DNA of 64,000 nucleotides from Eledone cirrhosa (lineage: Eukaryota): assembly GCA_964016885.1 (NCBI GenBank), contig OZ024743.1, positions 309,194,001 through 309,258,000 of the forward strand. The letters are read 5' to 3'. Below, piece after piece: positions 19,791 to 20,590 of this stretch (positions are counted from its first letter, which is position 1; every line of letters starts with the position of its first letter). Position numbers and translations under genes: made by a program. Below the pieces are notes generated by a model. It saw only the letters and a program-made list of their open reading frames with translations, searched no databases and was not told where the DNA came from.

Positions 19791-20590
19791 ACATTAATAT
19801 ATATGATAAACACAAAACGTGTTTGCATTGCAACAGACAAAGTTAGCTATCAATGAAATAAACTAATTAAAGTGAATACAATTTATCTGTCTCGATATAA
19901 GTCAATAAAGACAAGCTTATATTGGCAAAAGCCGTGATTCCTGGACAAATCTAAATTTCAAAATCCAAACCCGCTCCGTAGATGAATTTGAACCTCGAAA
20001 CCTAAATATGTTTCGCAACGATGGTACATGAATTGAAAAATAAAGAGAATCGAAATGGAATTGAAATAAAAAGTAAAATATCCAAATCTTCTGTGCTTAT
20101 CAACAGGAATCCAGTAAAATTAGTACATTCCACCATCAAAAACTTTGCAGGTCTGACTACACGTGTGCGTAGCCAGGCCAAACTAGCCGTCCCGCATTCC
20201 CGGTGCTAGAAATAGCAGCCGTTTATGCGGGATTAAAGATCAGCTCTACAGTTAAGGAGCAATATACTATATTATATTTTGAGATTAAACTCTCAGTCGT
20301 TTACAATTAATCAGCTCCAAGAAAGAGGCATTTCCGAGCAGTTAAATACATTAATATAAACGGCTTTTGCCAATATAAGCTTGTCTTTATTGACTTATAT
20401 CGAGACAGACAAATTGTATTCACTTTAATTAGTTTATTTCATTGATAGCTAACTTTGTCTGTTGCAATGCAAACACGTTTTGTGTTTATCATATATATTA
20501 ATGTATTTAACTGCTCGGAAATGCCTCTTTCTTGGAGCTGATTAATTGTAAACGACTGAGAGTTTAATCTCAAAATATAATATAGTATAT
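19791..20590 (-). mobile_element. one circularly closed ~567-nt unit + inverted arm crossing the junction; degenerate HHR ~20001-20107 (-)
   Basis: Left part starts and ends on acattaatat; 20361-20588 is a contiguous reverse complement of unit end + unit start; cctg TTGATAA gca...tgc GAAAcatatt tagg. Confidence 0.75.

Follow-up and report, generated by a model that had tools for sequence, protein, structure and literature searches.

According to the available part of PMC8557442, elements of the Penelope-like type (PLEs) occur as partial tandems with an adjacent inverted and truncated copy, a tail of 30–40 bp on one side only and (TA)n targets, and PLEs that are non-autonomous and arranged head to tail have been described as well; the accessible text of PMC3846280 also supports this anatomy (partial tandem, inverted copy, tail and (TA)n target). 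A PLE protein cleaves and extends both strands, with initiation at two internal RNA positions that delimit the genomic tail, and insertion proceeds normally with a dead hammerhead, unprocessed RNA being dominant in vitro (PMC11167929, partial text). Hammerheads of the U3-A8 variant and pairs of hammerheads on opposite strands, 100–700 bp apart, are described in the available part of PMC4209133. Animal non-LTR retrozymes were defined in PMC7229834, which in its accessible sections names PLEs as their likely mobilisers, and bioRxiv 10.64898/2026.07.22.740005 argues for this mobilisation, in the portion available, from homology and co-occurrence. Whether the templates of PLEs and animal retrozymes are circles or tandem transcripts is debated, and circles are proposed in both PMC4209133 and PMC7229834 (each in partial text).

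The window, a stretch of 64,000 nt from Eledone cirrhosa, is AT-rich animal DNA, rich in microsatellites and retroelement remnants. Within a (TA)n tract it holds an insertion with a repeat period of 557 nt, which we read, with a probability of roughly 80%, as a recent arrival of a retrozyme-like element without coding capacity that a Penelope-like RT/GIY-YIG enzyme moved in trans. The insertion is composed of the following features.

19679..19790, no strand: left (TA)n target tract with a short (CA)n interruption
19789..20358, minus strand: long arm, one full 557-nt unit and the first 11 nt of another, at start site 1
19791..20347, minus strand: repeat unit of 557 nt, strongly folding, with no open frame above 67 codons
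20001..20107, minus strand: imperfect type I hammerhead-like motif with a U3-A8 core and a long stem II insert
20348..20358, minus strand: 11 nt past the full turn, ending within the longest alternating TA run of the unit (8 nt)
20359, no strand: single extra base at the head-to-head joint, fitting neither template continuation
20360..20590, plus strand: inverted arm of 231 nt, at start site 2
20591..20599, no strand: right remnant of the (TA)n target

The initial annotation had taken the left arm to be exactly one turn of ~567 nt, starting and ending on the decamer ACATTAATAT. The decamer does mark the start and the end of the turn, at 19791 and 20348 on the plus strand, and occurs again at 20495–20504 on the minus strand, but the value of 567 counts it twice; the arm is about one turn, 557 nt followed by 11 nt, and 20348–20358 is a second copy of the unit start, which creates an 11-nt direct repeat. 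The inverted arm, which directly adjoins the 5' end of the long arm, copies 19935–19791 (in 20360–20504) and then 20347–20262 (in 20505–20590, the 86-nt tail), so that the reverse complement of the whole arm corresponds to unit offsets 471–556 followed by 0–144. As the annotation had it, this arm reads continuously through the end-to-start junction: compared with the circularised unit it is gap-free and identical at 230 of 231 positions, the sole mismatch being 20410 against 19885. All of its 231 nt are duplicated in the long arm. Because just one of the 242 duplicated bases differs, the insertion is young. We infer that the minus strand is the RNA sense.

Both outer ends adjoin (TA)n and share bases with it. 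At the 3' end of the long arm (start site 1) ATA at 19789–19791 is common to arm and target, and at start site 2 the same holds for 5 nt (20586–20590). The two start sites lie 86 nt apart and flank the unit junction. The central joint shows neither palindrome nor microhomology, and no poly(A) and no visible target-site duplication accompany the element. The unit contains no RT or endonuclease ORF, and a tblastn comparison with 127 proteins gave a best match of only E 0.029. Folded as a circle, it is far more stable than 30 shuffles on the minus strand (z −5.1; −2.7 on the plus strand), with 66% of bases paired, and as a linear molecule it reaches z −5.5, with 0 of 100 shuffles as good. Searches by blastn, nhmmer and motif found no second copy of the unit in the window. 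The unit had no counterpart in plasmid or phage collections, and the lone 20-mer match in a scan of bacterial and archaeal genomes had unrelated flanks and was dismissed as chance.

Among described systems, the endonuclease-containing PLEs (Neptune, Hydra and Naiad; PMC8557442 and PMC3846280, as far as their available text goes) share with this locus the more-than-unit arm, the adjacent inverted truncated copy, the tail at one end, the (TA)n target without duplication and a hammerhead-like motif on the sense strand. Unlike them, the 557-nt element has no RT/endonuclease ORF, its one-sided extension measures 86 nt instead of 30–40 nt, and no homology of the unit to a PLE pLTR was found in the window. 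With metazoan non-LTR retrozymes (PMC7229834 and bioRxiv 10.64898/2026.07.22.740005, both in part) it has in common that it is short, non-coding and strongly folding, carries a type I hammerhead-like motif, derives from a more-than-unit template and shares its genome with PLEs. Its length of 557 nt is above the 170–400 nt given in PMC7229834 and inside the range of 51–972 in the preprint. However, a strict retrozyme has two or more units in succession, each with a complete type I hammerhead; with 1.02 units and one imperfect hammerhead, this element falls outside the 'active' class as defined in the accessible text of the preprint, and its stem II insert is unusually long. Non-autonomous Chlamys elements such as MRC1 resemble it in being derived from PLEs, lacking coding capacity and having pLTRs and copies arranged head to tail, but they are algal, generally carry 3' sequence of an autonomous family and prefer (CA)n or (C)n targets (PMC8557442, partial text). 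Finally, the minimal hammerheads of the Schistosoma PLE Cercyon, as presented in the available part of PMC4209133, show the same U3-A8 core covariation and G10.1-C11.1 pair, in contrast to which the 557-nt element has a stem II insert of ~76 nt, a non-palindromic loop III and an AUU triplet. We conclude that known PLE biology accounts well for the element, which behaves like a non-autonomous PLE. In the literature searched, which held few subscription papers, there was no description of the 557-nt family, of cephalopod U3-A8 hammerheads with long stem II or of evidence for retrozyme integration at the level of junctions, which we take as a weak sign of novelty in each case.

The hammerhead-like motif had been annotated as a decayed U3-A8 hammerhead. 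Its position, core and long stem II insert are borne out, without Rfam support. Read from 20107 to 20001 on the minus strand, it has the core TTGATAA, a 3-bp stem II that encloses the insert (82 nt from the core to GAAA), a 4-bp stem I and the G10.1-C11.1 pair. Its flaws are the triplet AUU, unpaired positions 15.2/16.2 and the non-palindromic loop III. An AUU triplet supports only weak cleavage. Forcing the hammerhead fold costs 10.1 kcal/mol relative to the free fold, compared with 1.9, 2.6 and 4.5 kcal/mol in three intact hammerheads of the window. Rfam reported no hammerhead in the element (none of three weak matches was a hammerhead) and a single one above threshold in the whole window, at 6894–6938. 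A loose descriptor, tuned after the motif had been seen, matches 9 of 2000 shuffles of the unit; tuned on the motif in this way, it finds four real matches in the window against 0.43 per block-shuffled window. Because the 591-nt element and the Hydra-like PLE described below have intact hammerheads with the same core and stem II spans of 54–57 nt, we think it likely that the motif is a true hammerhead remnant. With only one of 242 duplicated bases differing, its flaws were probably present in the template already. In the 591-nt, Hydra-like and Neptune-like elements, the strand with the U3-A8 core is in each case the one that has its 3' end towards the target. Two alternative hammerhead registers for the motif, judged by eye, were no better and were set aside, and nothing was learned from aligning eight hammerhead regions together. 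Of note, further canonical or minimal type I hammerheads occur at 6894–6938 (downstream of a GIY-YIG-like frame, 4562–5206), 33055–33125, 35725–35798 and 56951–57011.

Our working model for the insertion is as follows. A PLE enzyme would nick both strands of the (TA)n tract, and each 3' end would pair with an internal UA-rich site of the RNA, through the 3–5 nt of microhomology seen at the ends, and prime a cDNA. The two cDNAs, of 568 and 231 nt and primed at sites 86 nt apart across the unit junction, may then have been joined at their 3' ends with one extra base, which would give the head-to-head structure that we see, with a tail on one arm. A self-comparison of the window, the check proposed in the initial annotation, shows the same layout repeatedly. 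In particular, the PLE explanation is supported by the same anatomy in the 591-nt (10770–13115), 428-nt (42198–43223) and 480-nt (7115–7907) elements as well as in coding Neptune-like and Hydra-like PLEs. Based on a script, TA microhomology of at least 3 nt (3–6 nt) is present at seven of the nine ends with known template context; at the other two, where the automatic calls failed on downstream mismatches, it is 3 and 7 nt by eye. The chance of such microhomology is 4–13% per end.

Several observations do not sit easily with this explanation. The 86-nt tail exceeds the published 30–40, the hammerhead is imperfect, and the ends pair with the target while the PLE start site studied in vitro is not homologous to the cut DNA (PMC11167929, available part). 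Moreover, PMC3846280, in its accessible text, ascribes head-to-head structures to self-priming, a model resting on a central palindrome that the 557-nt element lacks. No homology of the unit to the 3' regions of three PLEs in the window was found (z −0.6 to 0.3); therefore, we do not name a partner enzyme. That the window holds no second copy of the unit also counts against the explanation.

We also considered three other explanations for the insertion. A linear monomer copied with an end-to-end template jump, or a DNA fold-back in which the long arm was copied with a switch between the 11-nt repeats, would draw on the direct repeat that is indeed present, and self-priming and template jumps have been proposed for PLEs (PMC3846280, in part). 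Yet that repeat itself requires a more-than-unit source, the joint has neither the palindrome nor the microhomology to match, and the inverted arm shares 5 nt of its own with the target at its outer end, as independent priming predicts; we regard this explanation as quite unlikely. An RTE-like LINE lies directly to the left of the element, which brings to mind LINE-driven twin priming of an ordinary SINE and, more widely, a Helitron-type rolling-circle DNA element. Rolling-circle DNA elements leave head-to-tail arrays and LINE twin priming leaves 5' inversions, in which one end bears a poly(A) or simple tail and the inverted part lies upstream and is nearly non-overlapping. Here, however, the arms duplicate each other's template rather than dividing it, the inverted arm being duplicated in full and poly(A) absent. 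A CTRR motif is found at neither outer end (a weak test, covering the ends only and leaving hairpins unscored), and hammerhead-bearing neighbours and coding PLEs have the same anatomy, which together make a Helitron or LINE origin very improbable. Least credible of all is a fold-back artefact of assembly or library: although the arms are 99.6% identical and lie between microsatellites, they form no simple hairpin, in that the inverted arm spans a junction which is not present at that length in the long arm, and older elements of the window have the same layout with arms ~88–96% identical. PLE-mediated insertion in trans remains our preferred reading.

What form the template took is a separate question. 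Barring a template jump, the template RNA was longer than one unit, and the assertion in the initial annotation that a linear monomer could not supply both arms is true for one pass over the monomer. Its further proposal of a circular or tandem template is correct in so far as more than one unit is needed, but a circle is not: with the second start downstream of the first, a linear RNA of 654 nt (1.17 units, terminally redundant over 97 nt) is the shortest that gives both arms, and with the second start upstream, in a twin-priming geometry, the minimum is 704 nt. Such terminal redundancy is the usual partial tandem of PLEs (PMC8557442, available part). The excess over one unit is only ~100–150 nt; a circle is compatible with the arms but not needed. 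An uncleaved partial-tandem or tandem transcript is, in our estimate, slightly better than an even bet as the template and more likely than a ligated circle; a jump or some other source is improbable.

In the circular alternative, which we consider possible but clearly short of even odds, the RNA copied by a PLE enzyme would have been a covalently closed circle of 557 nt, produced when a hammerhead cleaves and the ends are ligated, and the long cDNA would have stalled on reaching its own start after one lap. Such a circle gains support from the stop after one lap, from the strength of the fold and from the 591-nt neighbour. The long arm stops 11 nt past one turn, for which chance gives 2–4% for a single arm; the circularised unit folds far better than its shuffles; the 591-nt neighbour combines an intact hammerhead with 3.22 turns, one mismatch in 1903 nt and four of four seamless cleavage sites; and circular templates yielding more than a unit have been proposed (PMC4209133, PMC7229834 and PMC7761336, in the parts available). 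The flawed hammerhead, probably flawed in the template already, weakens this reading and, together with the Neptune-like family, in which three of three copies read GCAA for GAAA, favours a tandem or partial-tandem template. In addition, hammerhead mutants insert normally in vitro (PMC11167929, partial text), and the stop sits in the longest TA run of the unit, which offers another possible reason to stop. The one-turn length holds for the target arm (1.02 turns) but for only one of the seven long arms in the window, which is within chance: they measure 1.02, 1.26, 1.36, 1.38, 1.41, 1.79 and 3.22 turns, a set that includes older arms with approximate ends and two elements related to each other (345 and 323 nt), and omits the 315-nt and 285/666-nt repeats, whose layout is unclear, as well as a 107-nt array in the Neptune-like copy. 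Accordingly, we dropped 'exactly one turn' as a rule. One fixed start and end in all copies had been named as grounds for rejecting a circle; fixed starts do not have this force because a PLE enzyme initiates internally at set positions (PMC11167929, available part). The Hydra-like family in the window does reuse two fixed sites ~80 nt apart, three copies having a common 3' end and two a common second start.

Applied to several elements at once, the circular alternative would make the 557-, 591- and 428-nt elements footprints of PLE enzymes rolling round hammerhead-made RNA circles, with both (TA)n nick strands priming by pairing at two UA-rich sites of fixed position and the resulting cDNAs joined head to head. 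In this comprehensive form we find it doubtful. If true, the junctions themselves would be evidence, in addition to homology and co-occurrence, that PLE transposition uses animal retrozyme circles as templates, and U3-A8 hammerheads with stem II inserts of 50–80 nt would form a class that is probably cephalopod. Short young non-coding insertions are informative in this respect in that they record both priming sites and the joint. The 557-nt copy alone cannot decide between circle and tandem, and the 591-nt neighbour, with its intact hammerhead, is the better circle candidate. [quoted passage not shown] Its U3-A8 hammerhead has a 57-nt stem II span, a palindromic loop III and the triplet GUC, and is absent among the 150 Rfam matches listed. 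The 557- and 591-nt units have no overall homology. At one start site these otherwise unrelated units share AGTTAAA..TACATTA, as follows.

10758–10781 and 19780–19801: AGTTAAA..TACATTA sites
11350–11370 and 20336–20357: internal copies

The 428-nt element makes 1.36 turns, with an inverted arm of 464 nt; between its two copies of a minimal hammerhead, core position 3 varies (U versus C). The 480-nt element is older and of the same layout, and its sequence appears weakly similar to the 557-nt unit near the junction. Homology between the two, which would align both start sites, initially seemed convincing (0 of 100 shuffles, as one of 20 comparisons), but 5–15 of 400 composition-preserving block shuffles did as well and unrelated stretches of the window scored equally, and we treat it as no more than a lead.

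Two coding PLE families occur in the window, named here from motifs rather than from a tree. The Neptune-like copy (59854–63801; further copies at 3208–3389 and 15208–15351) has RT and GIY-YIG families among its relatives and a CX4CXXC linker motif, while Pfam gave no match to it. Its 3' end occurs inverted, with one arm extended by a tail of 35–40 nt; two further ends reach only the shorter site. Its minimal hammerhead has the U3-A8 core; related short copies near 15.2 kb retain GAAA. The Hydra-like family (57197–59604, also 2608–2807, 13789–13969 and 14135–14252) carries RWR and DKT motifs, as in the available part of PMC8557442. Its copy has an inverted arm, and in another arm the sequence runs from the pLTR end for ~1.4 kb into the ORF before ending at (TA)n; the hammerhead is an intact U3-A8 with a 54-nt stem II span and a long stem III. 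For one PLE protein of the window, the closest named relative is from Argonauta hians (57% identity), pointing to a cephalopod.

We note that the 557-nt element is part of a nested pile (16120–20717), which is bounded by near-identical short inverted arms at 16120–16198 and 20600–20717 and contains a 634-nt tandem of 1.8 units, the RTE-like LINE and the 557-nt element, with (TA)n between each. In the LINE (17400–19679) the RT frame ends on the plus strand at 19679 and seems to resume on the minus strand from ~18345, a switch that appears to resemble a twin-priming inversion. A dispersed SINE-like repeat of ~185 nt is present in many copies in the window.

23335–23518, 26675–26875, 34435–34725, 40806–41008, 48976–49134, 50287–50526 and 53004–53217: SINE-like repeat
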